Shown here piece by piece: positions 1,784-58,634 of a stretch of DNA of 58,634 nucleotides. Each line of letters begins with the position of its first letter. The stretch's first letter is position 1. Below the pieces are notes generated by a model. The model saw only the letters and a program-made list of their open reading frames with translations, was not told where the DNA came from and made no database searches. The DNA comes from a virus: the IMG/VR virus record IMGVR_UViG_3300011244_000001. One strand, written 5' to 3'. A program made the translations under genes and the position numbers.

Positions 1784-1837
1784 ATGTTTTTCTCCTAATT
1801 TTGGGGTTGGTCTTACATTATAGGCAGATGAGGGAGC

Positions 1838-1866
1838 TTGTCAATACACTGAAAGCTATGTTAATC
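1838..1866 (+). promoter_or_regulatory. Candidate sigma70-type promoter for the plus block, implying a near-leaderless mRNA
   Basis: TTGTCA (1838-1843), 17-nt spacer, TTAATC (1861-1866). The ATG of the first plus gene is at 1875, only about 9 nt downstream. Confidence 0.4.
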
Positions 1867-25540: not shown

Positions 25541-25577
25541 CCCAAAACAAAAAGAGCATACTTATTAGGTATGCTCT
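25541..25577 (-). terminator. Rho-independent terminator
   Basis: 9-bp perfect stem agagcatac / gtatgctct (25553-25561 / 25569-25577), followed on the minus strand by TTTTTGTTTT. Lies downstream of gene 25633..25872. Confidence 0.6.
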
Positions 25578-25632
25578 CTCATTCTACGTTAATGTATGTT
25601 ATGTTGTCAAATACCAGCTAAAGCTAGTCAAA

Positions 25633-39977: not shown

Positions 39978-40024
39978 ATTCTGTCTCCTAATTGGCTGCC
40001 GAAGCAGCGGATGTTAATAGCTGC

Positions 40025-40322: not shown

Positions 40323-40360
40323 GGTTAGTAGAACAACTGTTCTATGCTGCTCTACTAACC
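40323..40360. promoter_or_regulatory. 10-bp perfect hairpin containing an AGAAC-N4-GTTCT (LexA/Cheo-box-like) palindrome
   Basis: Arms ggttagtaga (40323-40332) and tctactaacc (40351-40360). The box AGAACAACTGTTCT is at 40330-40343. Confidence 0.4.
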
Positions 40361-40373
40361 ACTGTCTCTACCC

Positions 40374-40859
40374 TTAGTCTTCAATCATAAAGGTGTTGCG
40401 TGTGTAATGCGATTGCACCATTGCTTCCACTGCACTAGCAAGGGTGTTGCCCTGGCCTGCGTAGTATCCAACATAGCCATCACTATCCTCATCCAGCACA
40501 TAGACCGTATAGACACAGTGATCATCAACTGTGTACCATACGTAGGGTATAGAGACCGTATCCAGGTAAGAGCGTATGTGTTCATCTGCTACATCTACAG
40601 CATATAGCTGCAGCCAGGTAACTTGGCCTTGCCAGATGTATCCATGCCCACATGCACCACTGTCATTATCTACGGTGCTGCCTGCCACTAGGGGGAGGTA
40701 GTTGGGTGCAGAGAGGCCGGGGGCAAGGCGGGTGTCTGCCTGTACCTGTAGCCCTTGTGCATCAAGGCGTGCTACCCAGTGGCCTGTCAAGGCACTGAGG
40801 AGGAGGGAGAGGAGGATAACGATCAAAGCAATCGCTAAGCGTCTATTGTTGTTACTCAT
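40374..40859 (-). CDS. Secreted or membrane-anchored protein (161 aa)
   Basis: N-terminal signal/TM RRLAIALIVILLSLLLSALTG. RBS GGAGAAACAGCA ATG. Confidence 0.55.
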   Translation of the reverse strand: MSNNNRRLAIALIVILLSLLLSALTGHWVARLDAQGLQVQADTRLAPGLSAPNYLPLVAGSTVDNDSGACGHGYIWQGQVTWLQLYAVDVADEHIRSYLDTVSIPYVWYTVDDHCVYTVYVLDEDSDGYVGYYAGQGNTLASAVEAMVQSHYTRNTFMIED

Positions 40860-41052
40860 TGCTGTTTCTCCATTGTTGTCTGTTGATGATGTTAATCATC
40901 TGTTGGTTGTTAGTACTACTGTATATAGTAGCGTTGATATATGAGTAGAGGATGAGGGAAGGGTGAGAGGAAGGTGAGAGAGGGCGGTAGTAGATACATT
41001 GTATATACATCCCACCCACACATCTCTCATCCATGACGCACCGCGTCATAAT

Positions 41053-41277
41053 TCACCCGTCCTGTAGCAACCTGATTTTTTCTAGCGCATACTCCAGACC
41101 TGTTATTTGCGCCGTCAAGTAAGGTACTAGCCATCTGTGATTCTCGCTAGTCTCTAATCCCCGCGCTTCCAACGATAATCGCGCAACTTGGCCTTCTATA
41201 CTGGCCGTAAGTTCCCGTATAAAGCCTTCAAGGTCTGTTTCTATCGGTCTATTCCATGCGTCAAAATAAGTTGTCAT
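41053..41277 (-). CDS. Hypothetical protein (74 aa)
   Basis: Early-region operon ORF. Confidence 0.5.
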   Translation of the reverse strand: MTTYFDAWNRPIETDLEGFIRELTASIEGQVARLSLEARGLETSENHRWLVPYLTAQITGLEYALEKIRLLQDG

Positions 41278-41289
41278 AATTCACTTCAC

Positions 41290-41736
41290 CTAATCCCAAT
41301 GGTCATCGCCTTCCATGAATATCGCAACCCCTGGAAAGTGACCACTTGCGCCACACACAGCATCATCATATCCATAAAATCCCCATACTGAGTCAGTCTG
41401 TTCCCATTGTTGGCACGAATTGCATTTCTGTTCAAGAACAATCCCATAAACTTCCCCTTCGGCGTAAGCTCTGTACTCATTAGCGTATGCTTCCAACATT
41501 GCGATCAACTTCCGGTTAATGTACCAACCGCTGAATTTACGCAAATCATCAATGTCACCATAGATAACCGCTTCTTGGCGATAATCAATGTTGACGGTAA
41601 TAAATAAATCACGCTCGCCGAGATAGCGATCTATAAATTGTTCTGCGTTCTGCGTGACTTCTACTTTTATTGAATCATCCCTATGCGGTTTATCTGGATA
41701 CTCGTCTAAAACTATCTTAACTCTCTGCTTACTCAT
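41290..41736 (-). CDS. Hypothetical protein (148 aa)
   Basis: Early-region operon ORF. Confidence 0.55.
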   Translation of the reverse strand: MSKQRVKIVLDEYPDKPHRDDSIKVEVTQNAEQFIDRYLGERDLFITVNIDYRQEAVIYGDIDDLRKFSGWYINRKLIAMLEAYANEYRAYAEGEVYGIVLEQKCNSCQQWEQTDSVWGFYGYDDAVCGASGHFPGVAIFMEGDDHWD

Positions 41737-41959
41737 TGTAATTTCCCCATTCTTTTAACAATAAATCTAATCGTCTTATACCACTCTCTATATCCCGTTG
41801 CGCCTTGCGGACTTCTGTGAATCGCTTATCGCCATTGATAAGTTGGCTAAGGTAATCATATACCGCTATACCGTTTACCGTTGCAAAGTCAGACAATCCG
41901 TTAGTGCCTATGCCTATAACATAATCATTACCGTCATGCTCAACCCTAATTTGTCTCAT
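41729..41959 (-). CDS. Hypothetical protein (76 aa)
   Basis: Early-region operon ORF. Confidence 0.5.
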   Translation of the reverse strand: MRQIRVEHDGNDYVIGIGTNGLSDFATVNGIAVYDYLSQLINGDKRFTEVRKAQRDIESGIRRLDLLLKEWGNYNE

Positions 41960-41961
41960 TG

Positions 41962-42252
41962 TTATATCCCCTTCCCGTTACCCGGCGTGCTATGAGTCTC
42001 TATTACATCAAATATAGTTGTGCCGCTGACTAGCATCAAGCGTGCATATCCGCCCATTGCCTCCGCTGCCAAGATAGTGTCTAGCCATGCTTTTGACCAA
42101 TACATATTTGGCGCACTTAAGATCGGCATGGTAGATATATGCTTCATTACAGAAATATGTCGCAAGCATACGGCATGTGTGCCACTCAGTGGATCAACGA
42201 TGATCTCGCCATTCTTAGCCACATAATCAAACACATAATCAAAAGTTAACAT
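41962..42252 (-). CDS. Hypothetical protein (96 aa)
   Basis: Early-region operon ORF. Confidence 0.5.
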   Translation of the reverse strand: MLTFDYVFDYVAKNGEIIVDPLSGTHAVCLRHISVMKHISTMPILSAPNMYWSKAWLDTILAAEAMGGYARLMLVSGTTIFDVIETHSTPGNGKGI

Positions 42253-42270
42253 TGTTATAATCCCCTATGC

Positions 42271-42627
42271 TTAACAATCGCATAATTCGCTCATATAAGC
42301 TGGTCTGTATATGCTGCCAACCTTAATATCATTCCACTCGTCGCCTGGACGTATGCGGGATCGTCCAGTAAGAATAATCGCCTGTTCTGGCAACGCATCA
42401 ATGAAATAGCCATAAGCGTGCCAGCACGCCGATGCTGTTCTACGTCCACTTGCTGATCGGCGTGCGCCAGATGCTTTGCTATCATGGACACGCAGTGTCA
42501 ACCTATGGCCATTTTCACGGCCTGACCAGCGTGGCGATTGGTCAAGTTTGATATTGCCATCGTACCGCTCGTTTGCGGCTTTTAGCGCATTTAAAATGTC
42601 TCGTATTGCCACATGCTTAATTAACAT
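42271..42627 (-). CDS. Hypothetical protein (118 aa)
   Basis: Early-region operon ORF. Confidence 0.5.
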   Translation of the reverse strand: MLIKHVAIRDILNALKAANERYDGNIKLDQSPRWSGRENGHRLTLRVHDSKASGARRSASGRRTASACWHAYGYFIDALPEQAIILTGRSRIRPGDEWNDIKVGSIYRPAYMSELCDC

Positions 42628-42883
42628 TATTCGTTTCCCCTATAGCGGCAAATGCCGCGTTTTGATCTGTATCGAAGTCATGTCCATTATCTTCCGTAAT
42701 GTAAAAGCTATAGTACAAGCCATGCTTAACCGGCAATCTAAAATCGCCTGGGCGCGTTTTCCATGTCTTTAGCTTCCCCGTTACTCGTACACGACGCGGT
42801 AGCCTATCGCTGCCTGTTTCCAGGCGAAAATACAGCGTTTGTCCATGTCTTAATTCCGTTACATTATCTCTAGTGATAATCAT
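42617..42883 (-). CDS. Hypothetical protein (88 aa)
   Basis: ATG 42883 (MIITRDNVTELRHG) is preceded by GGGAGAGTAGGACA. The track start at 42961 overlaps the upstream gene. Confidence 0.5.
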   Translation of the reverse strand: MIITRDNVTELRHGQTLYFRLETGSDRLPRRVRVTGKLKTWKTRPGDFRLPVKHGLYYSFYITEDNGHDFDTDQNAAFAAIGETNNVN

Positions 42884-42887
42884 TGTC

Positions 42888-43049
42888 CTACTCTCCCACC
42901 ACGACATCGCCCACGATAATCGTATATTCAATATCACCCACGATTGCCACATAAGGCTCATTTGTCCAGCCTACGCCATTATCATATTCAGCGTAAATAA
43001 TCGCCCGATCCACGTATTCCGCTAAAAGTTCCATTGTTCTAATCTCCAT
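42888..43049 (-). CDS. Possible small protein (48-53 aa)
   Basis: Only the C-terminal part of track ORF 42888..43193 looks protein-like (M(EIRT)MELLAEYVDRAIIYAEYDNG...). Candidate ATGs at 43049 and 43034. Confidence 0.35.
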   Translation of the reverse strand: MEIRTMELLAEYVDRAIIYAEYDNGVGWTNEPYVAIVGDIEYTIIVGDVVVGE

Positions 43050-43269
43050 TTTTCTAATCGCTGGTCTTATTGCCAACGTGCTAACAGAATAAACGATCCA
43101 AAAGGTCTTTGCATTAACCGCAGATGAGAAAAAATGAAAAAAGCGACAATAGATACAGTTAATCACGCTGGCGCATGCTATAGATGTAGCCATGAATCAA
43201 TCTATATGCTATAGACCGCAAATATTGGTCATGTATTGCGATAAGTCAGGATTATCGAAAATGCCCTAT

Positions 43270-43288
43270 ATATGGAAGCGTTCCATAT
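43270..43288. promoter_or_regulatory. Perfect palindrome ATATGGAA-GCG-TTCCATAT
   Basis: 8-bp arms read directly from the sequence, in the 5' leader region downstream of the candidate promoter at 43319-43347. Confidence 0.4.
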
Positions 43289-43318
43289 TCCCCCACATTG
43301 CAATACGGATTGACCGTG

Positions 43319-43347
43319 ATTATAGGCAACTAGAACATACGTTCTAT
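43319..43347 (-). promoter_or_regulatory. Candidate promoter (perfect TATAAT) overlapped by an AGAAC-N4-GTTCT box
   Basis: The minus strand reads AGAACGTATGTTCT agttgcc TATAAT. The box is at 43332-43345 and the -10 at 43324-43319. Confidence 0.4.
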
Positions 43348-43402
43348 CTTGCCTACTGGTCTATGTGGTCGAGAACAGATGGTCTAGCCGGAATTTCGCC
43401 GG

Positions 43403-43445
43403 GGGAATTTCCCAATCGGGGAATTTTCTGTGAGCAAAATCCATG
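43403..43445. repeat. Conserved intergenic element, copy A (GGGAATTTCCCAATCGGGGAATTTTCTGTGAGCAAAATCCATG)
   Basis: About 36 of 43 positions are identical to 47822-47864. A further GGAATTTCGCC half-site lies at 43390-43400. Confidence 0.7.
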
Positions 43446-43529
43446 TGTGATCATGTGATGTGCGTCATGCGTGTGCGTGCGTGTGTGTGTGATGATGATG
43501 GTGATAGATGGTGATAGCGATGATGTGTG

Positions 43530-43817
43530 CTAGACCTGCATAGCTCTGAGCCTGGCACATAGTTCCTCTGCTGCCACTTGAGCGGCAGACCAGACGGCAG
43601 GCGGAGTATTACGAGCAAGCGGCTCTGTTTTGCCAAGAGGCCATATACTTTTGATAAGAACAACGCATTGCCCATCTCTTTGATAGCCAATGAAATCAAC
43701 AGAGAAATAACCGCCAATAGATAACCAGCCTTGACAGTGACATTCAATCCTATCGATATGAACTTCACCTCTATCATCATTGGCCGACATTTCGACATTT
43801 AAGTATTCAATAACCAT
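43530..43817 (-). CDS. Hypothetical protein (95 aa)
   Basis: ATG 43817 (MVIEYLNVEM) is preceded by CGGCAGGGAAACATC (iterated motif acting as the RBS). The track start at 43877 is unlikely. Confidence 0.5.
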   Translation of the reverse strand: MVIEYLNVEMSANDDRGEVHIDRIECHCQGWLSIGGYFSVDFIGYQRDGQCVVLIKSIWPLGKTEPLARNTPPAVWSAAQVAAEELCARLRAMQV

Positions 43818-43886
43818 GATGTTTCCCTGCCGTTCTTGGTGATTATGCTGGGCAATTGATGGGGAATTACCAACCAATAACCAGAC

Positions 43887-43926
43887 AATATCACCAACAA
43901 TTTAATCAGAATATCACCAACAATTT
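43887..43926. repeat. Direct repeat AATATCACCAACAATTT x2 (period 23 nt)
   Basis: Perfect 17-mers at 43887-43903 and 43910-43926. Confidence 0.8.
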
Positions 43927-43934
43927 GAGAACAC

Positions 43935-43979
43935 TTTACCCACAAATTAGGTAGGAATTCTATCTAAGATGTGGGTAAA
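43935..43979. repeat. Inverted repeat TTTACCCACA ... TGTGGGTAAA (10-bp arms, 25-nt spacer)
   Basis: Arms at 43935-43944 and 43970-43979. Confidence 0.8.
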
Positions 43980-43991
43980 TTATGTAACATA

Positions 43992-44021
43992 TTAGTACCG
44001 GAGAGGAGGGAGGGGGGTCAA
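43992..44021 (-). promoter_or_regulatory. Candidate promoter TTGACC-N18-TACTAA
   Basis: On the minus strand, TTGACC is at 44021-44016 (part of TTGACCCCCC) and TACTAA at 43997-43992. Faces gene 43530..43817. Confidence 0.35.
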
Positions 44022-44215
44022 GAGTTGGGAGGAACCTCCCCCAAGAGTTGGGAGGAACCTAAGATGTACTCTCTTATTTCGTCAATAGCCTTGTACTCCG
44101 CATTATAGGCAATTAGGCGGCAAGGATCGGCATCATATGGGCGTTTGGTGGCCTGCATTGCAATATGTTCCAGTCTCACATCCAGGTATACCAGCAGGTC
44201 GTCAAGTTCTATCAT
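44018..44215 (-). CDS. Hypothetical protein (65 aa)
   Basis: Operon ORF. Its C-terminus (SSQLLGEVPPNS) is encoded by the 19-mer direct repeat. Confidence 0.45.
   Translation of the reverse strand: MIELDDLLVYLDVRLEHIAMQATKRPYDADPCRLIAYNAEYKAIDEIREYILGSSQLLGEVPPNS
44019..44060. repeat. Direct repeat CAAGAGTTGGGAGGAACCT x2 (period 23 nt)
   Basis: Perfect 19-mers at 44019-44037 and 44042-44060. Both overlap the 3' end of gene 44018..44215. A related GGGAGGAACCT lies at 48501-48511. Confidence 0.8.
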
Positions 44216-44535
44216 CAGTGTTTCCTCATCCCCTTGTAAATCTCAAGGATCATCCCCTCAATCTCAGCAACATCAACCCGCTCATCGTCCCATCTAACCC
44301 CATCCGGCGTACCTGGTCGGTAGTCGGGGAAAGCCTTGCCTACCATATCATCATGCAACTCTTGGGATGATTCTATAATCGTATCTCTAAGGGGTAGCCA
44401 TGACGTTATGCCATGCACAAGATTGTCCATGATGGTAAGGTACAAGCCCTCGTCATTCTGTAGCCACAAGGCAACGTTCCACGTCTCATAATTTTTCCAA
44501 CCGTTACACGTTTTATCTTCTAATGTTTCATTCAT
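44215..44535 (-). CDS. Hypothetical protein (106 aa)
   Basis: Operon ORF containing a WKNYETWNVALWLQNDEGLY motif. Confidence 0.55.
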   Translation of the reverse strand: MNETLEDKTCNGWKNYETWNVALWLQNDEGLYLTIMDNLVHGITSWLPLRDTIIESSQELHDDMVGKAFPDYRPGTPDGVRWDDERVDVAEIEGMILEIYKGMRKH

Positions 44536-44807
44536 TGTTGTATCTCCATTCGCTTTACAGCAACGATATAGCTATTAGCATCTTCACTAAAAGACACTAT
44601 ATCGAAGTTGTGCAACTCCCTAATCATAGCAAGCCCCTGATCTAGGCTGCCACTTGTCTCATAGTCATAGCCCTCGTAGATGCGTTTCTTTTCCCCCAGG
44701 AGGGGAAAGTCCGCACTTATAGATACTCTACTACCCCTACTCTCAGTCGGGCCATGATACCGCACCCGAATCAGTCTAACGTACTGCGGTCTGTCAATCG
44801 TTTTCAT
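44532..44807 (-). CDS. Hypothetical protein (91 aa)
   Basis: ATG 44807 (MKTIDRPQY) is preceded by ATGGAGAAAACA. Confidence 0.5.
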   Translation of the reverse strand: MKTIDRPQYVRLIRVRYHGPTESRGSRVSISADFPLLGEKKRIYEGYDYETSGSLDQGLAMIRELHNFDIVSFSEDANSYIVAVKRMEIQQ

Positions 44808-45183
44808 TGTTTTCTCCATTTGCTTCACTTTTTATGCTATACCAACCATCTTCGCCGTCGTCGCCATAGTAATCAAATGTCCATCCCTCTTTCTCGGCTT
44901 GCGAGAAATCGTCAGGATGAAGAAGCGCGTGATCCCTGCCATCATCAGAAAAGTCAGCAACTATATTCATTGTCTTTGTAGCTCCATGTCTTTGTAGCTC
45001 CATGTCTAGGTTATCAATCGCTTCTTGTGCGGTATTCCCCCGCCCCATAAGGATTCTTTCGTCCTGGCGGTACAAAGAGCGTTCTTTTAATATCGCCATA
45101 AAGAACGGGGGGCGAGCATTGGGGACGGCAGAAACCGACAAGAAGCACTGGACGTTATTGAGAAGAAAGTTATTCAGGTTCAT
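44794..45183 (-). CDS. Hypothetical acidic protein (129 aa)
   Basis: ATG 45183 (MNLNNFLL) is preceded by ATGGAGAACAAAAAA. Confidence 0.5.
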   Translation of the reverse strand: MNLNNFLLNNVQCFLSVSAVPNARPPFFMAILKERSLYRQDERILMGRGNTAQEAIDNLDMELQRHGATKTMNIVADFSDDGRDHALLHPDDFSQAEKEGWTFDYYGDDGEDGWYSIKSEANGENNEND

Positions 45184-45394
45184 TTTTTTGTTCTCCATAA
45201 AGCAACTGTGCCATCTCTATGACATCGGTAAGAGCATCATAAATTGTGCTACCGTAGCCGATATAGACCGCCCTTTTGTGGCGTTCCAGCACGGCAACAA
45301 AAGCCGCAGGTTGACCCCGTTCGGCTACATTACGAGCCAGTGTAACCCTCGTTTCCGTTCCCCGTAATGCCGCCTCTAGCTGTTCATTGGTCAT
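45170..45394 (-). CDS. Hypothetical protein (74 aa)
   Basis: Operon ORF. Confidence 0.5.
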   Translation of the reverse strand: MTNEQLEAALRGTETRVTLARNVAERGQPAAFVAVLERHKRAVYIGYGSTIYDALTDVIEMAQLLYGEQKNEPE

Positions 45395-45636
45395 TCGTTG
45401 ATCCTCATAGCGAAGTATGCGCCGTTGTAATAGATATGGATATTGTCGGCAGGGAAGATAAGCTCGACGGGATTGTCGTTGTTATAGACCTGATGGGCGA
45501 CGTTCTCCATTATGATTTGTAGCCGCTGGCGTGCTACCAGGACATTATGCAGGGCTTGTCCACTATCTAAAACAGTAGTCTCCACCAACTCTATATACTG
45601 CTCGGCCAACTCTTTTGCACGTAATACACTATTCAT
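45391..45636 (-). CDS. Hypothetical protein (81 aa)
   Basis: ATG 45636 (MNSVLRAKE) is preceded by ATGGAGAACAAAACA. Confidence 0.5.
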   Translation of the reverse strand: MNSVLRAKELAEQYIELVETTVLDSGQALHNVLVARQRLQIIMENVAHQVYNNDNPVELIFPADNIHIYYNGAYFAMRINE

Positions 45637-45728
45637 TGTTTTGTTCTCCATTGCTATATGTAGACACAGTATAAGGTATCTGAATCCTGTCTGCTGCATC
45701 CTGCTTTACATCCAGGGTGCATACCTGG

Positions 45729-46202
45729 CTACTCGTTGTTTTTTCCTTTTCTGAAATAGGTGTTGGTCAAGTCGGCATCGGTGAAATCCGCTTTGTCCAG
45801 GTTGCAATCAACAAAGGTAGCGTTGCTCAGGTCGGAGTTCCAAAAGCTAGTGCAGACAAACGAGCATCTAACAAATACGGCGTGCTGTAGATTGGCGTGC
45901 GTGATGCGAGCCTTATCAAAGATGCAGTCCGTGATATGCCCATAGCGGAAGTCAGCAAGCGCGAATTGGTAATTAGCAAAGCTCTCGGCATAAAGAATCA
46001 GTCGCTTCGTTTTTTGCTGATCGTTAGCATAGAAACTCCCCGCTAACTCCGGCAGGAGGCGCACAAACGCCCCCCAACCCCATTTTTGAGTGTCATACCC
46101 ATTTTGCCATGTCTCATTGATTAGCGATTGTGGCAGCATTGCCGGAGCGTTGGTAATGGCAACCCGCACGTCGTCGGGCATGATGATAAAATTATCGGCC
46201 AT
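45729..46202 (-). CDS. Pentapeptide-repeat protein
   Basis: The C-terminal half is made of A(D/N)LXX pentads: ANLQHAVFVRCSFVCTSFWNSDLSNATFVDCNLDKADFTDADLTNTYF. Confidence 0.7.
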   Translation of the reverse strand: MADNFIIMPDDVRVAITNAPAMLPQSLINETWQNGYDTQKWGWGAFVRLLPELAGSFYANDQQKTKRLILYAESFANYQFALADFRYGHITDCIFDKARITHANLQHAVFVRCSFVCTSFWNSDLSNATFVDCNLDKADFTDADLTNTYFRKGKNNE

Positions 46203-46389
46203 AGTAATCTTCCCTCAGTATCCAGAATTTTAGGCTATCAAACGCAGCGATCTGCGCGTGTATCTTATTTGCCCAATATGCCGCCTGCTCAACGTCAACG
46301 AATTCAAGCTCGGCGAGTTGCTGCACTTCCCAGGCCATGCGCCGGTCTATCTCCGCTACTACATCGCTTACCTCTAATTTCTTACCCAT
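46192..46389 (-). CDS. Hypothetical protein (65 aa)
   Basis: Operon ORF. Confidence 0.45.
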   Translation of the reverse strand: MGKKLEVSDVVAEIDRRMAWEVQQLAELEFVDVEQAAYWANKIHAQIAAFDSLKFWILREDYYGR

Positions 46390-46606
46390 TTTGTTCTATC
46401 TCCCTTAGCCACAATAGCAGGCTGTTTAGCTGATGAATTTCGCCCTCAGTAAAGCCGATGGCCTGGGCGTATGCATCATCCCCATACTCAACGATGTCGT
46501 ATTCATTGTCATCAGCGGTTGTCTGTAACACGTCGTGATGTTCACCCCGCGCTCTTGCTAACCGTTGCTCCAACTCAGTCCTAATTGTACTAATGTCAAT
46601 GTCCAT
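46382..46606 (-). CDS. Hypothetical protein (74 aa)
   Basis: Operon ORF. Confidence 0.45.
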   Translation of the reverse strand: MDIDISTIRTELEQRLARARGEHHDVLQTTADDNEYDIVEYGDDAYAQAIGFTEGEIHQLNSLLLWLREIEQNG

Positions 46607-46609
46607 TGT

Positions 46610-46993
46610 TTATTGTTCTCCCTCCCAGGGTAGCCACCCGTCCAGGAATGGGCGATCATCAAGGGGGGTATAGGTCGGCTCGTCGTCGTCGTTACCCTCA
46701 TCCCCATCCTCACATGACTCAGGGTAGCCTGTGTAATCCTCGATATTCTCAATCAATTCAAGCGCACTCTCAGCTACATCGCTCCAAGAAAGCTGCGGAT
46801 CAAGGTAGTTTAGCATGTCACGAAGCATATACATCTTACCTTTCATTTGCCCCGCCTGATCTTGCCACTGGTCGTAATCTATTCCACCAGTAGCGAGTGC
46901 ATTTCCGTATGTTTCAAACTCATCCCTAGTATCCTGAACCTGTTTGTTTGCCCAGGCCAACATTTGGCCGCGTGTTGTGATTATCATGTCCAT
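46610..46993 (-). CDS. Hypothetical acidic protein (127 aa)
   Basis: Operon ORF. Confidence 0.5.
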   Translation of the reverse strand: MDMIITTRGQMLAWANKQVQDTRDEFETYGNALATGGIDYDQWQDQAGQMKGKMYMLRDMLNYLDPQLSWSDVAESALELIENIEDYTGYPESCEDGDEGNDDDEPTYTPLDDRPFLDGWLPWEGEQ

Positions 46994-47004
46994 TGTTGTT
47001 TTCC

Positions 47005-47349
47005 CTATACGATGTCTAGTCCATTTTCCCTAATAAAATTTAATGCATCAATACCTATCATCTGCTTTGTATTGATAGTGGCCGTTCCCCATCCCTCAAC
47101 CCTTTCGCCCCAAAAGCTATCTAGTAGACGAGCGACCTTGACGGCATTGCTTAGGCCACGCACAGCAAAGCGCGTGCCGAGTAGTAACCCAAGCGGGTTG
47201 TAGGTCAAGTCCCAATTGCCCCGCCAGCCAGCTTGTACTCCGATGCTGCCTATCAGGTATCCGCACATCTCTGGTATCTCATCCTGCGAGTTATACGGCG
47301 TGAAGTTCAGTTGCACGCGCTTGCCGCGTTTTACAGTTGTTTTAGTCAT
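47005..47349 (-). CDS. Hypothetical protein (114 aa)
   Basis: First gene after the duplicated promoter copy 2. RBS GGAGAAACAACA ATG. Confidence 0.5.
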   Translation of the reverse strand: MTKTTVKRGKRVQLNFTPYNSQDEIPEMCGYLIGSIGVQAGWRGNWDLTYNPLGLLLGTRFAVRGLSNAVKVARLLDSFWGERVEGWGTATINTKQMIGIDALNFIRENGLDIV

Positions 47350-47390
47350 TGTTGTTTCTCCGTTTGCCCTGTTGGGCGATTGATAGCTGC

Positions 47391-47419
47391 ATTGTAGGCG
47401 ATTGTGGGGGCGTTGTCTG
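47391..47419 (-). promoter_or_regulatory. Candidate promoter (copy 2 of the duplicated promoter)
   Basis: The minus strand reads CAGACA (47419-14), 17-nt spacer, TACAAT (47396-91). The block 47383-47410 is near-identical to 40017-40045. Confidence 0.4.
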
Positions 47420-47446
47420 TGTTCTACTTTACAATCGGGGGGTCAA

Positions 47447-47647
47447 TTAGCCTACGTCGTCAATCTCGTCTAGTACTTCCCGATATGCACTAATTTTGGC
47501 GTATAGCATCGTGCGGTAATCGGTATGCGGTAAGCTCTCTAGGTATAGCTCCTCTAGTCTATTTACCTTGTTCTGGACACGATTCTTTAGCACACGCTTG
47601 TATTCATTAAGGCGCGTTTCCCTGGCGAAGTCTTTTGCTGTTGTCAT
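47447..47647 (-). CDS. Hypothetical protein (66 aa)
   Basis: Operon ORF. RBS TAGGAGAACGACTA ATG. Confidence 0.5.
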   Translation of the reverse strand: MTTAKDFARETRLNEYKRVLKNRVQNKVNRLEELYLESLPHTDYRTMLYAKISAYREVLDEIDDVG

Positions 47648-47821
47648 TAGTCGTTCTCCTATCTTGCGCTCTGTGGCGCGTTTGGTAATGCCTATAAGGT
47701 AGCAGATCGGCAGGGCAAAGTATACCGTTTTGGGGCGGTTCTTATCGTTGTCTCATGTTGTTAGGCTTAGTTATGGGGGTCAGGTCTACACGAAGTCGGC
47801 CAACCGGCAAACCTTGTCAGC

Positions 47822-47864
47822 GGAAATTTCCCACGCGGGGAATTTTCTGTGAGCATTTTCCGTG
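47822..47864. repeat. Conserved intergenic element, copy B (GGAAATTTCCCACGCGGGGAATTTTCTGTGAGCATTTTCCGTG)
   Basis: Paralogue of 43403-43445. Contains the perfect 10-bp palindrome GGAAATTTCC (47822-47831). Confidence 0.7.
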
Positions 47865-47911
47865 CAGGCGCGTATGGATAGCTTGTGTGGACAGGCGCGT
47901 GGGTGTGTGTG

Positions 47912-48394
47912 CTAGATGGCGTGGGAGTCGGGGAGAGGGTTACGCTTCATTATCTCCAGCGCGTCAGTGAAGTCGTCCAGGCTTAGGGCGCGTGCCAGAT
48001 GTTGGGAGGATTCCGAGCGCGGTAGGTCCACCATCTCTTCTTCCCCTGCCGCCTCTTCTGTGTCAGGCAGGACAAGTTTATCAGCAATGAGCAGCAACTC
48101 GGCCAGTGCGCGATTGAGGTTGGTTGCACGGATGCGAAGGGGGCGTTTGCCGAAGTAATCCTTGACGAGTATCTGACGTTTGCCGTCGTGATCTTTGTTG
48201 ATTACCACGTCGAATCGCTGGGTAAAGCGGTCGAGGGCTGCCAGCATTTGTAGCGGGAATAGCTGGTCGTTAGGGGTAGGTTCTGGTAGGAAACACCCAC
48301 AATTATGCTGGGTTAATCCAGGTACATTTTGGTATGATTTTGCGAGTAATTTGTCTGAGTATTCAGGGTCAATACCCGTTGATAATTGGTTCAT
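47912..48394 (-). CDS. Hypothetical protein (160 aa)
   Basis: First gene of the early block. Confidence 0.55.
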   Translation of the reverse strand: MNQLSTGIDPEYSDKLLAKSYQNVPGLTQHNCGCFLPEPTPNDQLFPLQMLAALDRFTQRFDVVINKDHDGKRQILVKDYFGKRPLRIRATNLNRALAELLLIADKLVLPDTEEAAGEEEMVDLPRSESSQHLARALSLDDFTDALEIMKRNPLPDSHAI

Positions 48395-49824: not shown

Positions 49825-51407
49825 TAAGCCCCCTCACTTGCGTTATGCTCATCTATCCGCACGACAAGCCCCATCAATTGCGCCTTTAAGCTCTCTAGCT
49901 CATAAGTCACCCAGTCAGGAATCGGGGTGAAGGTAGGCGGGTCAACCGGGGGATCAACTGGCGGCTCTTCGGGTTCTGTACCATCGTAGTAGGACAGTGC
50001 GCCGAGGTCGGGCGGGTTGTTGCGGGCGTCGCCTATCATGTCATCCGTGCCGCCCTTTGCGTTTACCACGCCTGCGCCCACAGCCTTGCTTCCTGCTCTA
50101 AGGAAGTAGTTACTTAAATCAATGTCGCTGTCCAGTCCCTTCCAGTTAATCGGAGCAGCGGCGTTTGCCAGCCCTGGATCGCCGTTCACATCGTTACTTC
50201 CTTTGAACTTTGCGGCGGGAGCGACTGACCAGAGGTTATGCTGCACCTTCATTCCCTGCGGGTCGCCAACGGCTATCTCAGCGGCGGCTGGCGCGTTAGT
50301 CCAGTCCACGATGTTGTTCTCAAAGAAGCTGTTGACGTGCGGGTTGCCGCGCATGTTGTCGCCAATGTTGATTCCCTGGCGAGTCAATGGGCCAGCAACA
50401 AGGGTATTATAGCCAATGTAACAATCCTCTAATGTGGTATCGTAGCCTCCTGCCCATCCCCCGCTTCCGGCTTTACCCAGTCCATTTGCAACGTGTAGCA
50501 TCACGCCAAGATTGACGACCAGGTTATTGTAAATCTGGACGCGGGCCGTTTTAGGGAAGCTGGCGTTGTTGCGACAAACGCCCTGCTTGTCGCCTGCCAG
50601 GTTGCCGCACTCGTCACCAATGGCGATAGCCCCCGGCGCGTCCTTATCACCCTCAATGTCGGGGTAGCCAGGAGCGAACCAAACAATGTTGTTGCGAACA
50701 ATGACGTCGGTAGAGCGATTGACGTAGATGTGTTTGTGCGCGACCAAGAAAACCTCATTTTCCTCACACAGTACGCCGACATTTCCCTTACCTAGATTGA
50801 TGCCCTCGCCGTAGGACATACCACACACGTTACCGCGAACAACCGCGTTCTTTGTCCTGCCGATCTTAATCACGCCCCCGCCAGGGTCCTTGCCCCCTGT
50901 TGCGGAGTTGTCGAATGACTGCATACCAGAACGGGTGCAAACGTTGTCCTCGATAGTAAAGCCTTCGATCAGCTTATCTGGCGATATTTTAATGCCGCTG
51001 ACGTAGGTATGGTCAATCGTACAGTTAATGATAGTCCCGCCGTCACAGCCCGTGCCGTTGATACCGCACCCGCCGATGTTGCGAATGGTGCAGCCGTCAA
51101 TTATAATGCCGGGGGCGCGAAGCGAAATCATGCCTGCGTTTTTGTCGCCGGGGAGCGTGCCAGCAGGCCCTTTTCCCTTCTTAGTCTCATCATAGCCGCC
51201 ATCCAGGATCGTCTCGCCCACCCGCTGGCCGCGCCAAGTCGTGTTCTTGGCGGTAATTTTTAGCTCCTCGTGCCACACGCCAGGACCTATCAGCACGGTA
51301 TCGCCTTCTTTCACCAGCGCGACCGCTCGGCCCAGCGTCAGTACGGGCGAGCTTTCGCTGCCATTATTGCTGTCCTTTCCCTCTTTGCTTACATACAAAA
51401 TAGCCAT
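49824..51407 (-). CDS. Right-handed beta-helix (pectate-lyase superfamily) protein, depolymerase candidate
   Basis: Repeats DGCTIRNIGGCGI / INCTIDHT / EDNVCT / VRGNVCG / NNIV. ATG 51407 (MAILYVSKEG) follows AGAGGAAG. The C-terminus is Pro-rich followed by a coiled coil. Confidence 0.6.
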   Translation of the reverse strand: MAILYVSKEGKDSNNGSESSPVLTLGRAVALVKEGDTVLIGPGVWHEELKITAKNTTWRGQRVGETILDGGYDETKKGKGPAGTLPGDKNAGMISLRAPGIIIDGCTIRNIGGCGINGTGCDGGTIINCTIDHTYVSGIKISPDKLIEGFTIEDNVCTRSGMQSFDNSATGGKDPGGGVIKIGRTKNAVVRGNVCGMSYGEGINLGKGNVGVLCEENEVFLVAHKHIYVNRSTDVIVRNNIVWFAPGYPDIEGDKDAPGAIAIGDECGNLAGDKQGVCRNNASFPKTARVQIYNNLVVNLGVMLHVANGLGKAGSGGWAGGYDTTLEDCYIGYNTLVAGPLTRQGINIGDNMRGNPHVNSFFENNIVDWTNAPAAAEIAVGDPQGMKVQHNLWSVAPAAKFKGSNDVNGDPGLANAAAPINWKGLDSDIDLSNYFLRAGSKAVGAGVVNAKGGTDDMIGDARNNPPDLGALSYYDGTEPEEPPVDPPVDPPTFTPIPDWVTYELESLKAQLMGLVVRIDEHNASEGA

Positions 51408-51418: not shown

Positions 51419-54400
51419 TTATAGACAACTAATCTCATCGGGGACAAGTCTCGCTCGCCCCTGTGGGAAGTCTACCACGATACTGTGAGCGCCGCTAGAG
51501 AGGTCCCACCATTGCACGAGGCCCAGTCCCTCGGCATACCAGTACCGCTCAAAGGGGGAGGATCCATTAGCATTATGACTCACTTCTACCTCGAATATAT
51601 TCATTAGCCGTTTGGCAAGTAGCTGGCCGTTCCAGACACGTCGCAAGATGGCGTAAGTTGTGTCGTAGTACGAAGCCACCGTTTGAGCGCAATTATTTTT
51701 GCTGAAAATCCTGACCAGGGCGATGCGTTTGTAAACCTTGCCGATCTCCATATGGCTCGGTAGCCACTGGTGGGCGCGGCTGCCGGGGTTGTCCTGTAAG
51801 GTGTAGAACGTATACTCGCCGTGACTGGTATCCTCGTCACGGTAAATCCAGTTGCCCTCTACCCATATGCGTTCGTAGTTGCGATTCTTGACAATGCGTC
51901 GGTCTTTCGGCTGTAGCTGCACGTCCTCGGTTGCGCCCGCATGTTCACCGGCGTCGGTGCGAATAACCATCATCGGGCCGTCATCCCCGTTAGGCGTCGT
52001 GAACGCAATCCCTATAGGGTAAATAACCGGCGGGGTCGGTACATCAGGCAAGCGGGATAGCGACCAGCCATCAAGCCAAAAATTATTGCTAATCGCGTAG
52101 TTAGCGCGAATCTCCACCATAACGGTTAATGGTCCACCAGAATGAACAATCTCGTGTGCCGCTTCCACCTTCTTTCCTGCCGTCAATTTGGTCCAGGGCT
52201 GGCCGTTCGCCCTTACCTCTGCCGATCTGGGATCAACGTTATAGTCCTTACGTTTGTTGATGTCGTCCCACTTATACACATCTACCCATACCGGCGTCAG
52301 TAGCCGGTAACGCCCTGCTGCCATGCCCGGCAATGTCTGTGATAGTCGCGCCCATATTGACCGGCCTCCAGCAAAGGTCTTTAGTGCCTGCTGCCCATGC
52401 CAGATGAATATATCTCGCTCTGACGCGGGTAGATGTAGCTTGCCCTTGTGGACGAACTCGCCGCCCTGATAGTCATTCCAGGCGTCAGCGCTATACGGGT
52501 TATCCTCTCCTATAGCCCATTGTACCGTCCAGCCGTTCGGGTTCTGGTTACTTTGGTCAATGTCGGTCCACCCTTCATCAAATGACCCGTTCTTGAGCAG
52601 GTTTCCCGGTTGTGAAGGGGGGTCCTCTTTTGGCGGATCAAGAAATGGGTCGAGTGGGCGGACCTCGTAGTTGTAGCCCTTGATAATTTCCTTCTCGGCT
52701 GGCGAGAAACGCCCGTAGCCGTAGACGATTAGCTGACTGTCCTCACGCACGCCGTCGCTATCCATGATGTCCCGCATATCGTCAAAACTGTAGACTATGG
52801 TATGCCGACCTCCCCATGTGGCCTCGGCAATACGCCCGGCAACCTTCGGCGCGATGTTAGACGGCAGGAGAACAACAATGGCCTTGCGCCGGGTAGGTTG
52901 ATCGGCGCCAACCAGGTCAGCCAGGTCTTGTTCTGTGCCGTTAAAGCGGTTCATGTCCAAGCGCGAGCTTTGTACGCCCCACTCTGGTCCAGGCTCGGCG
53001 TTTGTGTATTGCCAGAACAGCCAGTTTGCCCAGGGCTTAGGAACGGCAGGGGAAGAAGCGACTGTCCACTGCGCCAGCCATAGCGGGTACTCTGCGCCCC
53101 AGGACGGGGACTTGAGCGTGCCGGTCCAATAGCTAGGGCTGGTATAGATAGCCGGTTCATGCGGATGGCCGATTCCCTTTAGCTTGTCGTGTAAGTAATC
53201 CATCGCCCTCATCACCCTGTCGGTGTAGTCGCCGGGGATATTGCTGCCTTCCTCCAGATCGACCGCCACGCCTAACGGCCCGCCGTACTTGACGATAAGA
53301 TTAAAGAAGAACTCCATCTGCTGAATGGGGTCTATGCTGGGGTAGTAGTAATGATACAGGCCATAGGGCAGACCTGCGGCACGAATGAGGGGTATGTAGC
53401 CCGCGATGCGCTGATCCTCGTGCAACCCCGTCAGGTAGCCGTAGGAGGCGCGAGCCATAACAAACTGTGCGCCCTCGACCTTCATTTTGTTGAAATCTAC
53501 ATTGCCCTGCCATTTGCTAATGTCTGGCCCAATGACTGTCATTTTTCCCTCCTGCCCCCCGTCTAGTACGCGAGGCGGTATCTCTGTTTGTTGGATGACT
53601 TGTGCCAGCACTGGAATGTACTGGCTGATATTCTGGTGAATGTCGCCCCAGCCCCGATCTAATGTCCACAGGGCGAGGCCCTTTACTTCGGGGTAGGCGT
53701 AGTGCGCGGCGTAGGTAGACAGCAGTTGACCCATGCCAACATCGGGCGCTGGTGCTCCCCGCTCTGCCCAGCCAAACTCAGTGAAGAACACGCTCACGCC
53801 CTTAATGCCGGGTATGGACTTCCATCTCCCAACGAGCCAGGGGGATTCAAGCGTGTCTGTTTCTAGGCTGTACTCATGCAGGCCGAGGGCCAGCTTGTCG
53901 GGGTGAGCGCGAAGCAGAGCCAGTAGCTCCTGCATCTTCGGCTTTGTCCAGGCATCAAGGTCGGGCGTGCCAGCGGACCAGTCCATCACGGTTATCTTCT
54001 TCCCTGCCGCCAGAGCTATACTACACAGGTAGATACTATACTCGGCTACCCACTCGCTGGCCTCCTTGCGTAGCTCGTTGTTGATCCCGTACCAGACCCA
54101 GGCGGGATCAAGTTCCGGTGATTCTTTCCACAAGTCATTGTGGGTCCGCCAATCCCATTCTGCTGCCAGGATAGGGGACGTATCGTAGTTAGGTACGTCA
54201 ATGAAGCGCGAACCGATGATACCAGTGCGCCGAAAGTGAATGAAGGTATCAGCAGGCGAGTAGCCCGCAGCTTTGGCGAGTTGCTGCACTTCCCAGCAAG
54301 GTCCAGCCGCGTCAATGCTCATCACGCCAACGGGACAGCGGGCGGCAATCAGCTTGTGATAGAAGTCGCCAATCCCATCCTGGTAGCTCTGTCCAGTTAC

Positions 54401-54424
54401 CTTAAATCCGATTCTTGCTTTCAA
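51419..54424 (-). CDS. 1001-aa multidomain glycoside hydrolase / endolysin-like protein (clan GH-A TIM barrel + GH25 muramidase + CBM-like + C-terminal domains)
   Basis: GH-A signatures GINNELRKE and FFTEFGW. GH25 signatures GPDISKWQGNVDF, FVMARASYG, GLYHYYYP, AVDLEE and LFWQYT. CBM4/9-like LLKNGSFDEGWTD. TTG start at 54424. Confidence 0.7.
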   Translation of the reverse strand: MKARIGFKVTGQSYQDGIGDFYHKLIAARCPVGVMSIDAAGPCWEVQQLAKAAGYSPADTFIHFRRTGIIGSRFIDVPNYDTSPILAAEWDWRTHNDLWKESPELDPAWVWYGINNELRKEASEWVAEYSIYLCSIALAAGKKITVMDWSAGTPDLDAWTKPKMQELLALLRAHPDKLALGLHEYSLETDTLESPWLVGRWKSIPGIKGVSVFFTEFGWAERGAPAPDVGMGQLLSTYAAHYAYPEVKGLALWTLDRGWGDIHQNISQYIPVLAQVIQQTEIPPRVLDGGQEGKMTVIGPDISKWQGNVDFNKMKVEGAQFVMARASYGYLTGLHEDQRIAGYIPLIRAAGLPYGLYHYYYPSIDPIQQMEFFFNLIVKYGGPLGVAVDLEEGSNIPGDYTDRVMRAMDYLHDKLKGIGHPHEPAIYTSPSYWTGTLKSPSWGAEYPLWLAQWTVASSPAVPKPWANWLFWQYTNAEPGPEWGVQSSRLDMNRFNGTEQDLADLVGADQPTRRKAIVVLLPSNIAPKVAGRIAEATWGGRHTIVYSFDDMRDIMDSDGVREDSQLIVYGYGRFSPAEKEIIKGYNYEVRPLDPFLDPPKEDPPSQPGNLLKNGSFDEGWTDIDQSNQNPNGWTVQWAIGEDNPYSADAWNDYQGGEFVHKGKLHLPASERDIFIWHGQQALKTFAGGRSIWARLSQTLPGMAAGRYRLLTPVWVDVYKWDDINKRKDYNVDPRSAEVRANGQPWTKLTAGKKVEAAHEIVHSGGPLTVMVEIRANYAISNNFWLDGWSLSRLPDVPTPPVIYPIGIAFTTPNGDDGPMMVIRTDAGEHAGATEDVQLQPKDRRIVKNRNYERIWVEGNWIYRDEDTSHGEYTFYTLQDNPGSRAHQWLPSHMEIGKVYKRIALVRIFSKNNCAQTVASYYDTTYAILRRVWNGQLLAKRLMNIFEVEVSHNANGSSPFERYWYAEGLGLVQWWDLSSGAHSIVVDFPQGRARLVPDEISCL

Positions 54425-54926: not shown

Positions 54927-56038
54927 TAGAATGGCGTCTCTACCTTCCAGGGAGCCTTGTATCCCTGGTCGTCGGCGTAAAGCAGCTTGTACTTCTTGAA
55001 CACGTCCCGCTCTTCGGGCGTGTACTCATAGACGAACATGCCGCCAGCCGGAAGGCCGTCGAGACGTTGCTTCGCCACGTAAACAAAGACCAGTCCTGCC
55101 GTCACGACAAATACCTGGTCCTCGTATCGGATAGGCTTACCAATGCGGTATCCCATGCGTGCGGGCGTCCCGATAGTCAAGATGCGGTCGGGTCGGGTGG
55201 CTGTCTCGGCTGTCTCGGCTCCGCTGTACATATCGGGCAACACGATTTCTGGCGGGGTTGCCTCCCCGGTCTTTTCGTTCACTTTCTCCCGTAGCTGCGG
55301 GCCTCTTGGTCGCATCTCCTGGTTGGCCTGGACGCCGAGGATAGAGGCCATGCCGACGACGCCGCCCATCCTTCTCACCTCGTTCACATCGCCCAGCACT
55401 TGTAGCCTGCGTCCCCCATCATTGCTGTACTTACTGCGCTTTGGGTCTACGGGAAACGACTGTAGGTAATCAAAGAAGGCGGCAAGCACAACGTGTTTCC
55501 ACTCATCCACATTGCCGTTTTTGAGCGCGAGGAGCCACTTTAGTGCATTGGTCAGCGTGACTTCATCAAACGTGCCTGTCCCCTCGCTAGGGCGAGAGGA
55601 GAGGGCATAGATAGGGCTTCCTGCGATGCGGCGGGCAGCATTGTTGAGGGCTTGAATCTGTGTGCGGTCCTTGCCATAGACGATAGCCGGTACACTGATA
55701 CCTGCCTCTCGCGCCATGAATGACAGCGCCAGATGCTCCATTGTCGTCTCGGTGTCTACCCAACCGATTACCCCGCCTGGCCCACCTTCGGGATCGGAGA
55801 CGCCCATTTCAAGATAGTAACGAGCGAGGCGCGATGCCCAATTCCGCATGAAGGTACTCTTGCCATTGGATGACCAGCCTACTATCTCGATCATCTCGCT
55901 TGGCAATCCTGGCCCAAAGTAGCCATCCAGACCGGGGAGCAGGATGGGTACCAGGCGATTCTCATTGGCGCGTAGCTGGGTCAGATAATTTCTGGCGATG
56001 CCGCCGATCTCGGCGGGGGTAGTGATGATTCTAGTCAT
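54926..56038 (-). CDS. DnaB-like replicative helicase (C-terminal RecA-type domain only)
   Basis: Walker A GWSSNGKSTF. DnaB-type Walker B VVLAAFFDYLQSF (hhhDYLQ). Confidence 0.65.
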   Translation of the reverse strand: MTRIITTPAEIGGIARNYLTQLRANENRLVPILLPGLDGYFGPGLPSEMIEIVGWSSNGKSTFMRNWASRLARYYLEMGVSDPEGGPGGVIGWVDTETTMEHLALSFMAREAGISVPAIVYGKDRTQIQALNNAARRIAGSPIYALSSRPSEGTGTFDEVTLTNALKWLLALKNGNVDEWKHVVLAAFFDYLQSFPVDPKRSKYSNDGGRRLQVLGDVNEVRRMGGVVGMASILGVQANQEMRPRGPQLREKVNEKTGEATPPEIVLPDMYSGAETAETATRPDRILTIGTPARMGYRIGKPIRYEDQVFVVTAGLVFVYVAKQRLDGLPAGGMFVYEYTPEERDVFKKYKLLYADDQGYKAPWKVETPF

Positions 56039-56074
56039 GTTCTTTCTCCTATTTATTAACGAATGATAAGCCTA

Positions 56075-56104
56075 TTGACAAGAGGAAAAAGAATTATGTA
56101 TAAT
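56075..56104 (+). promoter_or_regulatory. Near-consensus sigma70 promoter on the plus strand
   Basis: TTGACA (56075-56080), 18-nt spacer, TATAAT (56099-56104), with TG immediately upstream of the -10. Confidence 0.6.
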
Positions 56105-56110
56105 GCAGGT

Positions 56111-56169
56111 ACATTGTTCTTTCTCCTCAGTGGAAGCCCCTGGAAATCGGTCCGGGGGCTTTTGGTTTT
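56111..56169 (+). ncRNA. Candidate small RNA of about 58 nt (promoter + intrinsic terminator, no ORF)
   Basis: No start codon between the predicted TSS (about 56111) and the terminator. It contains GTTCTTTCTCCT (56116-56127), identical to 56039-56050, which is the antisense of the helicase RBS. Confidence 0.4.
56134..56169 (+). terminator. Rho-independent terminator
   Basis: Stem AAGCCCCTGG / CCGGGGGCTT (10-11 bp with one G-U pair), 8-nt loop, then TTTGGTTTT. Confidence 0.55.
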
Positions 56170-56557
56170 AACAGTCTTGCCACCAATTCTCTCTCTTCTT
56201 AATAGCCTTCTTGATCCACTCGTCGAGCATACCATTGTCTATATGCTGCTCTGCCACACGAATTAGAATGACGCCCTCGACGGCCAGACGGTTGTACTTC
56301 TCCATATCGTCAATGAATCCCTGCGGCTGAACGTGCCGCCCCCTCGTATAGATACCACCCTCGACTTCAATCACGATGTTCCAGGTTTCTATCCAGAAGT
56401 CCACTGTATTACGCCGGTCGGGGAATGGCTTGTACTGGCGAACAACGGTCCCGTAGCTGCTCGTGCGCCCGTTGATAACTTGTGTCGGGTACAGCTCGTC
56501 TAGCAGGATCGTTATCCGCTGCGACGCCTTGTCCTCTAGTTCGCTCTTATTGCTCAT
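56168..56557 (-). CDS. Vsr/DUF559-like restriction-endonuclease-fold protein
   Basis: NTVDFWIETWNIVIEVEGGIYTRGRH matches the DF...hhhEvDG..H pattern. Confidence 0.55.
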   Translation of the reverse strand: MSNKSELEDKASQRITILLDELYPTQVINGRTSSYGTVVRQYKPFPDRRNTVDFWIETWNIVIEVEGGIYTRGRHVQPQGFIDDMEKYNRLAVEGVILIRVAEQHIDNGMLDEWIKKAIKKRENWWQDC

Positions 56558-58460: not shown

Positions 58461-58634
58461 CTACGCAAAGCGGGCTAACAAGCCTACCGGCAGCTCCCAA
58501 CCAAAAGCGGTCGGGTCAGCCAGCTTGTCGTCAGCATGGACATTACCCAACGGCAGGCCGTGAACCAAGCGCATGACGATCCAGGCGTGCTTGAGCCAGA
58601 GCTTTACTGCGTAGCGCAACGCCCGACGATGAGC
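58461..58634 (-). CDS. C-terminal part of the junction-spanning gene (see 1..575)
   Basis: Same frame as 1..575 across the overlap: ...VMRLVHGLPLGNVHADDKLADPTAFGWELPVGLLARFA, then TAG at 58463-58461. Bases 58558-58634 duplicate 1-77. Confidence 0.6.
   Translation of the reverse strand, partial: AHRRALRYAVKLWLKHAWIVMRLVHGLPLGNVHADDKLADPTAFGWELPVGLLARFA
58558..58634. repeat. Terminal direct overlap (second copy of 1-77)
   Basis: Identical 77 nt. Confidence 0.95.

Follow-up and report, generated by a model that had tools for sequence, protein, structure and literature searches.

A predicted antisense RNA opposite the leader of a helicase gene in an uncultured phage, and its counterparts in two relatives

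The stretch of DNA that we have analysed (IMG/VR record IMGVR_UViG_3300011244_000001, 58,634 nucleotides), which we refer to as "the window", is a circular assembly, with positions 1-77 being identical to positions 58558-58634 (77 nt), and it represents a complete phage genome of ~58.56 kb, where almost every long open reading frame is carried by the minus strand. A DNA similarity search has returned no deposited phage that is similar at the DNA level, and the portal protein of the phage has ~25% identity at most to that of any deposited phage. The GC content of the genome is ~55%, but it drops to 28-35% over positions 56040-56129, where the intergenic gap that is the subject of this work is located; separately, a block of small genes at positions 40000-48000 has a GC content of 44-50%.

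Along the minus strand, a primase-like gene (1783-851) is located ~30 nt downstream of a perfect sigma-70 promoter and is followed, beyond the circular junction, by the gene of a T5orf172-domain protein (58340-57291), the gene of a 246-aa protein, a 129-aa gene (56557-56168, with its stop codon at 56168-56170), a gap of 129 nt, the gene of a 370-aa DnaB-C-like helicase (56038-54926) that begins directly downstream of the gap, the gene of a 174-aa protein and the gene of a 1001-aa protein with an endolysin-like domain (51419-54424). The endolysin-like domain (phrog_291) occupies the center of the 1001-aa protein, which is situated among replication and early genes, away from the structural genes. 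The two genes that flank the gap had been labelled "Vsr-like" and "DnaB-like" in a preliminary description of this DNA. The first label has been dropped, as the sole match of the 129-aa gene is phrog_503, a family with no assigned function; the second label is weak for the helicase of the window itself, which matches PF03796 of Pfam with E = 0.016, in addition to the DnaB and primase-helicase families of PHROG, but it is better founded for the relatives of the helicase and their profile, which match DnaB (PDB ID:2q6t) with E = 0.004.

The plus strand of the gap, i.e. its non-coding strand, carries a promoter that faces all sense transcription: the -35 box TTGACA (56075-56080) is separated by an 18-nt spacer from the -10 box TATAAT (56099-56104), which is preceded by TG. 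The preliminary description had singled out this site (TTGACA-N18-TATAAT, 56075-56104) as a consensus promoter, and our analysis agrees: it matches sigma-70 at 12 of 12 positions. Only two 12/12 matches occur on both strands of the whole ~58.6-kb window, the other one being the promoter that heads the primase-like gene (TTGACA-N16-TATAAT, 1844..1817, minus strand), which is located on the coding strand; not one of 2000 dinucleotide shuffles of the 129-nt gap has reached the score of the gap promoter. A minus-strand promoter (TTGTCA-N16-TTAATA), which had been suggested to lie back-to-back with the plus-strand one, has turned out to be weak, the best sense-strand match in the gap being 9/12.

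Transcription from the gap promoter would start at A56111, 7 nt past the -10 box, and would end in the T-tract of an intrinsic terminator, giving a plus-strand RNA of ~57-60 nt (56111-56169), whose 3' bases overlap the stop codon of the 129-aa gene. The strong terminator that had been described at 56134-56169 is present: it consists of an 11-bp stem (AAGCCCCTGGA, 56134-56144, paired with TCCGGGGGCTT, 56151-56161), a 6-nt loop and the T-tract TTGGTTTT (56162-56169), and is not among the calls of a generic terminator scan of the window. The predicted 60-nt RNA has a folding energy of -24.7 kcal/mol (z = -3.3). Judging from the sequence, this antisense RNA is probably made. A search of the whole window against Rfam has given no match at the gathering thresholds, with the best sub-threshold scores in the gap being 21-23 bits against cut-offs of 42-72, and the RNA can therefore be assigned to the antisense small RNAs by mechanism only.

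Three other arrangements of promoter-like and terminator-like sequences have been observed in the window, away from the gap. At 25610..25550 (minus strand), a 12-bp hairpin and its T-run come directly after TTGACA-N18-TAGAAT and are succeeded by the SD and the GTG of the next gene; this hairpin, which resembles a terminator and would lie at the very beginning of a transcript, is possibly an attenuator or a 5' stabilising hairpin. Two strong intrinsic terminators occur in tandem (37884-37859 and 37755-37732, minus strand) within ~1.2 kb (37.1-38.3 kb) that are poor in convincing open reading frames, and this region may hold further small RNAs or an operon boundary. Lastly, a 10/12 promoter-like site (51079-51107) and a terminator-like hairpin (51232-51252) are located on the plus strand inside a 534-aa gene, where they could delimit a second antisense RNA of ~150 nt, an arrangement that is within chance expectation.

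The 5' part of the predicted RNA contains a CU-rich core, the "seed" TGTTCTTTCTCCTC (56115-56128), and the complement of this core on the sense mRNA is an SD-like element, GAGGAGAAAGAACA. The core includes one copy of an exact direct repeat, TGTTCTTTCTCCT, the two copies of which are located at 56115-56127 and at 56038-56050, i.e. in the translation-initiation region of the helicase gene; the exactness of this repeat had been recognised before, at 56116-56127 and 56039-56050, but its length is 13 nt and not 12. It is the longest word that is shared among 2850 pairs of translation-initiation regions; its significance is tempered, because a common pattern (TAGGAGAAA..AACAATG) runs through the initiation regions of this phage, which share words of 10-11 nt 14 times. 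The initiation region of the primase-like gene, TTAGGAGAAAAACATATG, also resembles that of the helicase gene, so that the two replication genes share one type of initiation region.

Relatives of the helicase have been collected by three rounds of searching over 5.8 billion proteins, which have yielded 11 sequences. The helicase is nearly an orphan, with two close relatives only: L001 (49% identity), encoded on a 2.8-kb ENA contig (ERZ23579493), and L002 (45% identity), encoded on a 3.1-kb Logan contig (SRR14699982). The module that we describe below is thus defined by three metagenomic sequences, those of the window, L001 and L002. An intergenic gap precedes the helicase gene in both relatives, and the module is kept on the antisense strand; the genes upstream of the gap are not the same in the three sequences, so it is with the helicase gene that the module travels.

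The antisense promoter of L001 is TTGACT-N16-TATAAT (11/12), with TTGACT at the place of the -35 box, and one of 2000 shuffles is as good; the corresponding site of L002, TGTAGAAT, has no convincing -35 box (8/12) and is not significant, with 596 of 2000 shuffles being as good. The -10 motif TGTAKAAT is common to all three sequences. The CU-rich stretch of L002 is identical to that of the window, while that of L001, GTTGTTTTTTCTCCTCCTCTC, has one substitution; in the three-way alignment the core TGTTYTTTCTCCTC is invariant, between genomes whose helicase proteins are 45-49% identical. The stems of the hairpins share their position and differ in sequence (AAGCCCCTGGA in the window, AAGAGCGTG paired with CACGCTCTT in L001, and a 14-bp stem, GAGTGACCCTGG, in L002), so that it is the structure, not the sequence, that is kept; between the window and L001, double, pair-preserving changes occur at three positions, as counted by eye from that end of the stem which adjoins the T-tract. 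A T-rich run follows the hairpin on the antisense side in all three sequences (CCTTTTTGCC in L001 and TCGTTTCTTTC in L002), while the sense side of the hairpin (CCACTGAGG, GAGAGGAGG and TCAGAGGAG) is without a T-run. The RNAs that are predicted for the window, L001 and L002 have lengths of 60, 63 and 53 nt and fold with z = -3.3, -5.3 and -4.8, respectively, each of them beginning with a CU-rich 5' tail that is unpaired, continuing with a stable hairpin and ending in a U-rich tail; these folds have been taken individually, since MAFFT-based consensus folding misaligned the hairpins, which differ in length.

The promoter and terminator pair that was previously proposed to define a short plus-strand RNA, itself a prediction, is statistically exceptional in the window and recurs with equal position and orientation in L001, where the promoter, the hairpin and the tail are all present; it is weaker in L002, owing to the promoter. 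The elements that are kept in three of three sequences are the core (sense GAGGAGAAARAACA, antisense TGTTYTTTCTCCTC), the adjacent hairpin, the antisense T-tract and the antisense -10 box, while two of three keep the full consensus antisense promoter and also a hairpin of the sense mRNA that hides the SD-like element.

This second hairpin, which is absent from the preliminary description, arises from an inverted repeat between positions 56082-56100, i.e. the promoter spacer and the -10 region, and positions 56110-56128, just past the predicted start of the antisense RNA. It is impossible in the plus-strand RNA, because that RNA starts after the first arm, but it can form in the sense mRNA (56082-56128, minus strand), where the SD-like copy and AUGUA (56128-56110) pair with UACAU and an anti-SD, UUCUUUUUCCUC (56100-56082); with its arms being GAGGAGAAAGAA..AUGUA and UACAU..UUCUUUUUCCUC, the hairpin has an energy of -18.4 kcal/mol (z = -4.7). 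L001 has a sense hairpin of different sequence (-17.7 kcal/mol, z = -4.5), and no hairpin has been found in the sense mRNA of L002 (fold z = 0.24).

The anti-SD of the window also has an alternative partner: the segment UUCUUUUUCCUCUU (56080-56093, minus strand) is, according to a repeat finder, 86% complementary over 14 nt to the SD region of the helicase gene (56053-56040). When the leader complement of the antisense RNA is blocked in silico, the anti-SD pairs with the helicase SD in the predicted fold of the window, and the probability of being unpaired, averaged over the SD and the start of the helicase gene, drops from 0.54 to 0.22; the same computation gives a weak effect in L001 (0.60 to 0.48) and is uninformative in L002, where the antisense complement lies outside the modelled segment. 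As far as these predicted folds go, the switch appears convincing in the window only, being weak in L001, and L002 is without the sense hairpin.

The SD-like copy heads a mini-ORF, MYLHYT* (56114-56094, minus strand), whose stop is located 43 nt ahead of the helicase SD and which had been put forward as a possible leader peptide. The mini-ORF is real, but it is not conserved, and the leader-peptide reading is weak: it has 6 codons in the window, its counterpart in L001 (VYLLYT...*) has 18 codons and ends with a TAA that overlaps the helicase SD, which is a coupling arrangement, and no start codon follows the SD-like element in L002. The similarity between the peptides MYLHYT and VYLLYT has been considered as a sign of conservation and set aside, as it probably follows from the conservation of the hairpin arms and the -10 box; measured from the start codons of the two ORFs, the -10 boxes of the window and L001 differ in position by 2 nt.

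With regard to a possible contact between the RNA and the start of the helicase gene, the helicase initiation region AGGAGAAAGAAC-AUG (56036-56050, minus strand) holds the 13-nt exact match to the seed complement and is the sole exact complement of at least 10 nt to the 5' part of the RNA on the minus strand outside the RNA's own locus. By duplex energy with the seed it ranks third of 75 initiation regions of the window, behind those of the genes that start at 46606 and 42627, which form stronger duplexes with the seed. The duplexes between each seed and its own helicase initiation region have energies of -20.2 kcal/mol in the window, -12.7 kcal/mol in L001 and -7.2 kcal/mol in L002, with 1, 74 and 699 of 2000 shuffled initiation regions, respectively, being equally good. 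Cognate pairs of seed and initiation region are not better than non-cognate pairs; every seed pairs best with the initiation region of the window, so there is no sign of co-evolution. The second target over the helicase SD, which had been proposed as perfect, is indeed perfect in the window, but only part of it is present in L001 and none in L002. One of the two outcomes that had been named as refuting the proposal, the loss of the 12-nt identity in relatives that keep the rest of the spacer, is therefore seen in part, with the CU-rich core being kept and its match to the helicase initiation region not.

The module has not been found in the eight more distant relatives with available DNA (36-38% identity; ten loci, among L003-L009 and L149-L152), where two ORFs of ~70 aa precede the helicase gene and a sense-strand promoter is located upstream. 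Nine of these loci (L003, L005, L007-L009 and L149-L152) share a sense-strand signature that consists of a stop codon, N7, TGAGAG, N26 and (TGn)TAnAAT, and in four of them (L007, L008, L151 and L152) this is followed by a leader of ~130 nt, where the motif ATCGARGCG is conserved and a hairpin immediately precedes the first small ORF. The sense strand of the window reads TGAGGAG-N24-CATAAT at 56130..56093, with a spacing of 31 nt against 32 nt in the distant relatives; a promoter signature of the TGAGAG type has been set aside for the window, where it has 4 matches against 3.8 expected from shuffles.

Neither the single protein nor a two-sequence alignment, used as the query in scans for the helicase locus across viral, genome and metagenome collections, has given any relatives, and the scan with a four-sequence alignment has given one distant viral contig (L152) and no genome match. 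The DNA pattern GAGGAGAAARAACA-N4-11-ATTMTA, which combines the core and the -10 box, has 19 viral matches and at least 120 metagenome matches; none of the matches listed encodes the helicase, so these are chance SD-like occurrences.

Taken together, the observations above are best explained, with a probability of roughly 0.5, by a cis-encoded antisense RNA that is made and that lowers the expression of the helicase; we infer the direction of the effect from the switch that is seen in silico and from the analogy with antisense systems of plasmids and phages. A sigma-70-type RNA polymerase of the host would transcribe a short non-coding RNA against the direction of nearly all phage genes, and the one-way intrinsic terminator would end it, leaving a product with a single-stranded CU-rich 5' tail and a terminator hairpin. 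Sense transcripts that read through from the upstream genes into the helicase gene would carry the exact complement of this RNA, namely a hairpin followed by the SD-like polypurine element, and pairing between the RNA and the leader would lower helicase expression by one or more of three possible routes: first, the pairing would take the SD-like copy from its partner, and the freed anti-SD (56093-56080) would close the ribosome-binding site of the helicase gene; second, and in the window phage only, the 5' tail of the RNA would form a direct 13-nt duplex with the initiation region of the helicase gene; third, a double-strand-specific RNase may cut the RNA duplex. The simplest reading that makes use of all the conserved elements is a cis-encoded antisense RNA, the conserved target of which would be the SD-like element and the hairpin in the helicase leader.

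The same elements may be read from the opposite strand, as a unit of the sense mRNA that comprises a processing or stabilising hairpin and an SD-like polypurine element that holds a ribosome and shields or primes the helicase message, as in sequences of the STAB-SD and SP82 type, or else a leader ORF, with the antisense promoter being secondary or fortuitous. This explanation covers L002 best, since the hairpin and GAGGAGAAARAACA are kept in all three sequences, even in L002, which has neither a start codon nor a significant antisense promoter; SD-like sequences without start codons have been reported to stabilise mRNAs, one of them from phage SP82 (PMC7509114), and the stop codon of the 18-codon ORF of L001 is placed as in translational coupling. 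The conserved core could, in such a case, be kept for its function on the sense strand as an SD-like element, and not as the seed of an RNA. We consider a sense-mRNA unit possible but, on balance, unlikely: it does not account for the 12/12 and 11/12 promoters on the opposite strand, nor for a T-tract that is consistently located on the antisense side of the hairpin, the mini-ORF is conserved neither in length nor in presence, and the SD-like element is sequestered in a hairpin in both the window and L001.

Rather improbable, in our view, is a control by promoter interference, where convergent transcription or a seated polymerase throttles the read-through into the helicase block, in the manner of pO against pR of phage lambda, with the short RNA being a by-product and the terminator merely shielding the upstream genes from antisense transcription. 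The orientation of the consensus promoter, which faces all sense transcription, and of the terminator, which acts in the antisense direction only, would fit such a control, and there is a precedent in the lambda pO promoter, which is located just upstream of the replication genes, opposes pR and lowers the pR transcription that passes it (PMC3985674). The explanation leaves aside, however, both the transcribed core, which is invariant although the sequences of the hairpins have fully diverged, and the sense-strand hairpin between the SD-like copy and the anti-SD.

An extended form of the antisense reading is also doubtful: the RNA would be the trigger of a three-part toggle in the leader, capturing the decoy ribosome-binding site and freeing the anti-SD that shuts the real one, and it may also damp other phage genes, so that one constitutive RNA would control the dosage of replication genes. 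The CU-rich tail, which resembles the anti-SD of the 16S rRNA, may in this form damp genes that share the strong initiation pattern, with the genes that start at 42627 and 46606 as candidate extra targets, to which the primase-like gene may be added.

A DNA-level element, i.e. an origin that is activated or primed by the short transcript, or a set of protein-binding sites formed by copies of the ~13-nt motif, is highly improbable: the AT-rich stretch is located directly upstream of the helicase gene and three motif copies (56038-56050, 56082-56094 inverted, and 56115-56127) surround the strong promoter, but no turn of the GC skew has been found at the position of the gap, the motif is indistinguishable from the ordinary ribosome-binding pattern of the phage, no additional copy is seen in the gap of L002, and the early idea that the lambda oop RNA primes replication was abandoned (PMC3985674). 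It is just as hard to believe that sequences resembling a promoter and a terminator have come together by chance in an AT-rich spacer and that the repeat is no more than two occurrences of the ribosome-binding consensus, because, even though initiation regions of the phage often share 10-11-nt words and promoter-like and terminator-like matches overall are not commoner in the window than in shuffles, the promoters are matched by 0 and 1 of 2000 shuffles in two independent genomes (p ~1e-3 or lower each) and the orientation and order of the elements are kept in three.

As a sequence family, the predicted antisense RNA is new, with no Rfam match and no deposited phage that is similar at the DNA level, and by analogy of mechanism it would group with lambda oop, P22 sar, IS10 RNA-OUT and the copy-control RNAs of plasmids. 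P22 sar and IS10 RNA-OUT are small antisense RNAs that are transcribed from intercistronic or leader promoters and mask the ribosome-binding site of the downstream gene. These RNAs overlap the regulated site directly, whereas the RNA gene in the gap is located ~60 nt upstream of it and overlaps only a copy of the site. In plasmid R1 (CopA and CopT-tap-repA) and in the IncB and IncI plasmids (RNAI-repY), the leader of the replication gene is the target of an antisense RNA that, by blocking a short leader ORF or a structural rearrangement, switches off translation of the replication protein. The likeness to CopA of R1 lies in an antisense RNA that is directed against the leader of a replication gene; the differences from the R1 and IncB systems are that the leader ORF is not conserved here (6 codons, 18 codons and none), that the geometry of stop-SD coupling occurs in L001 only, and that the protein under control would be a helicase in place of an initiator.

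Among phages, there is a likeness in arrangement to the pO promoter and oop RNA of lambda, a short transcript that runs antisense to the main early transcript, ends at an intrinsic terminator and is located directly ahead of the replication genes (PMC3985674; PMC12197685); P22 sar is also mentioned in the latter source. The predicted RNA of the gap shares with it a host-type promoter, a short length, an intrinsic terminator and a position beside replication genes, and no sequence similarity has been found between the gap RNA and oop. The oop RNA acts through RNase III on the 3' end of cII and has been reported to have no effect on the stability of the O-P mRNA, whereas the complement of the gap RNA is the leader of the replication gene itself, including the SD-like element. 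On the sense strand, the leader is similar to STAB-SD and the 5' stabiliser of SP82 in having a strong SD-like polypurine element, without a conserved start codon, downstream of a hairpin (PMC7509114), but differs from them in the window and L001, where the element is sequestered within a hairpin and has a start codon after it.

What is unusual in the arrangement is the position of the antisense gene, which overlaps not the ribosome-binding site itself but a copy of it, in combination with an anti-SD; if proven, this would be a variant of the R1 and IncB systems. The practical value of the finding for this uncultured phage, which comes from a metagenome, is limited. If the RNA is real, antisense control beside replication genes would not be confined to lambda-like phages and plasmids, but would also sit in a very distant, uncultured phage lineage, where it would illustrate, in a compact natural setting, the joint use of a decoy ribosome-binding site and an antisense RNA.
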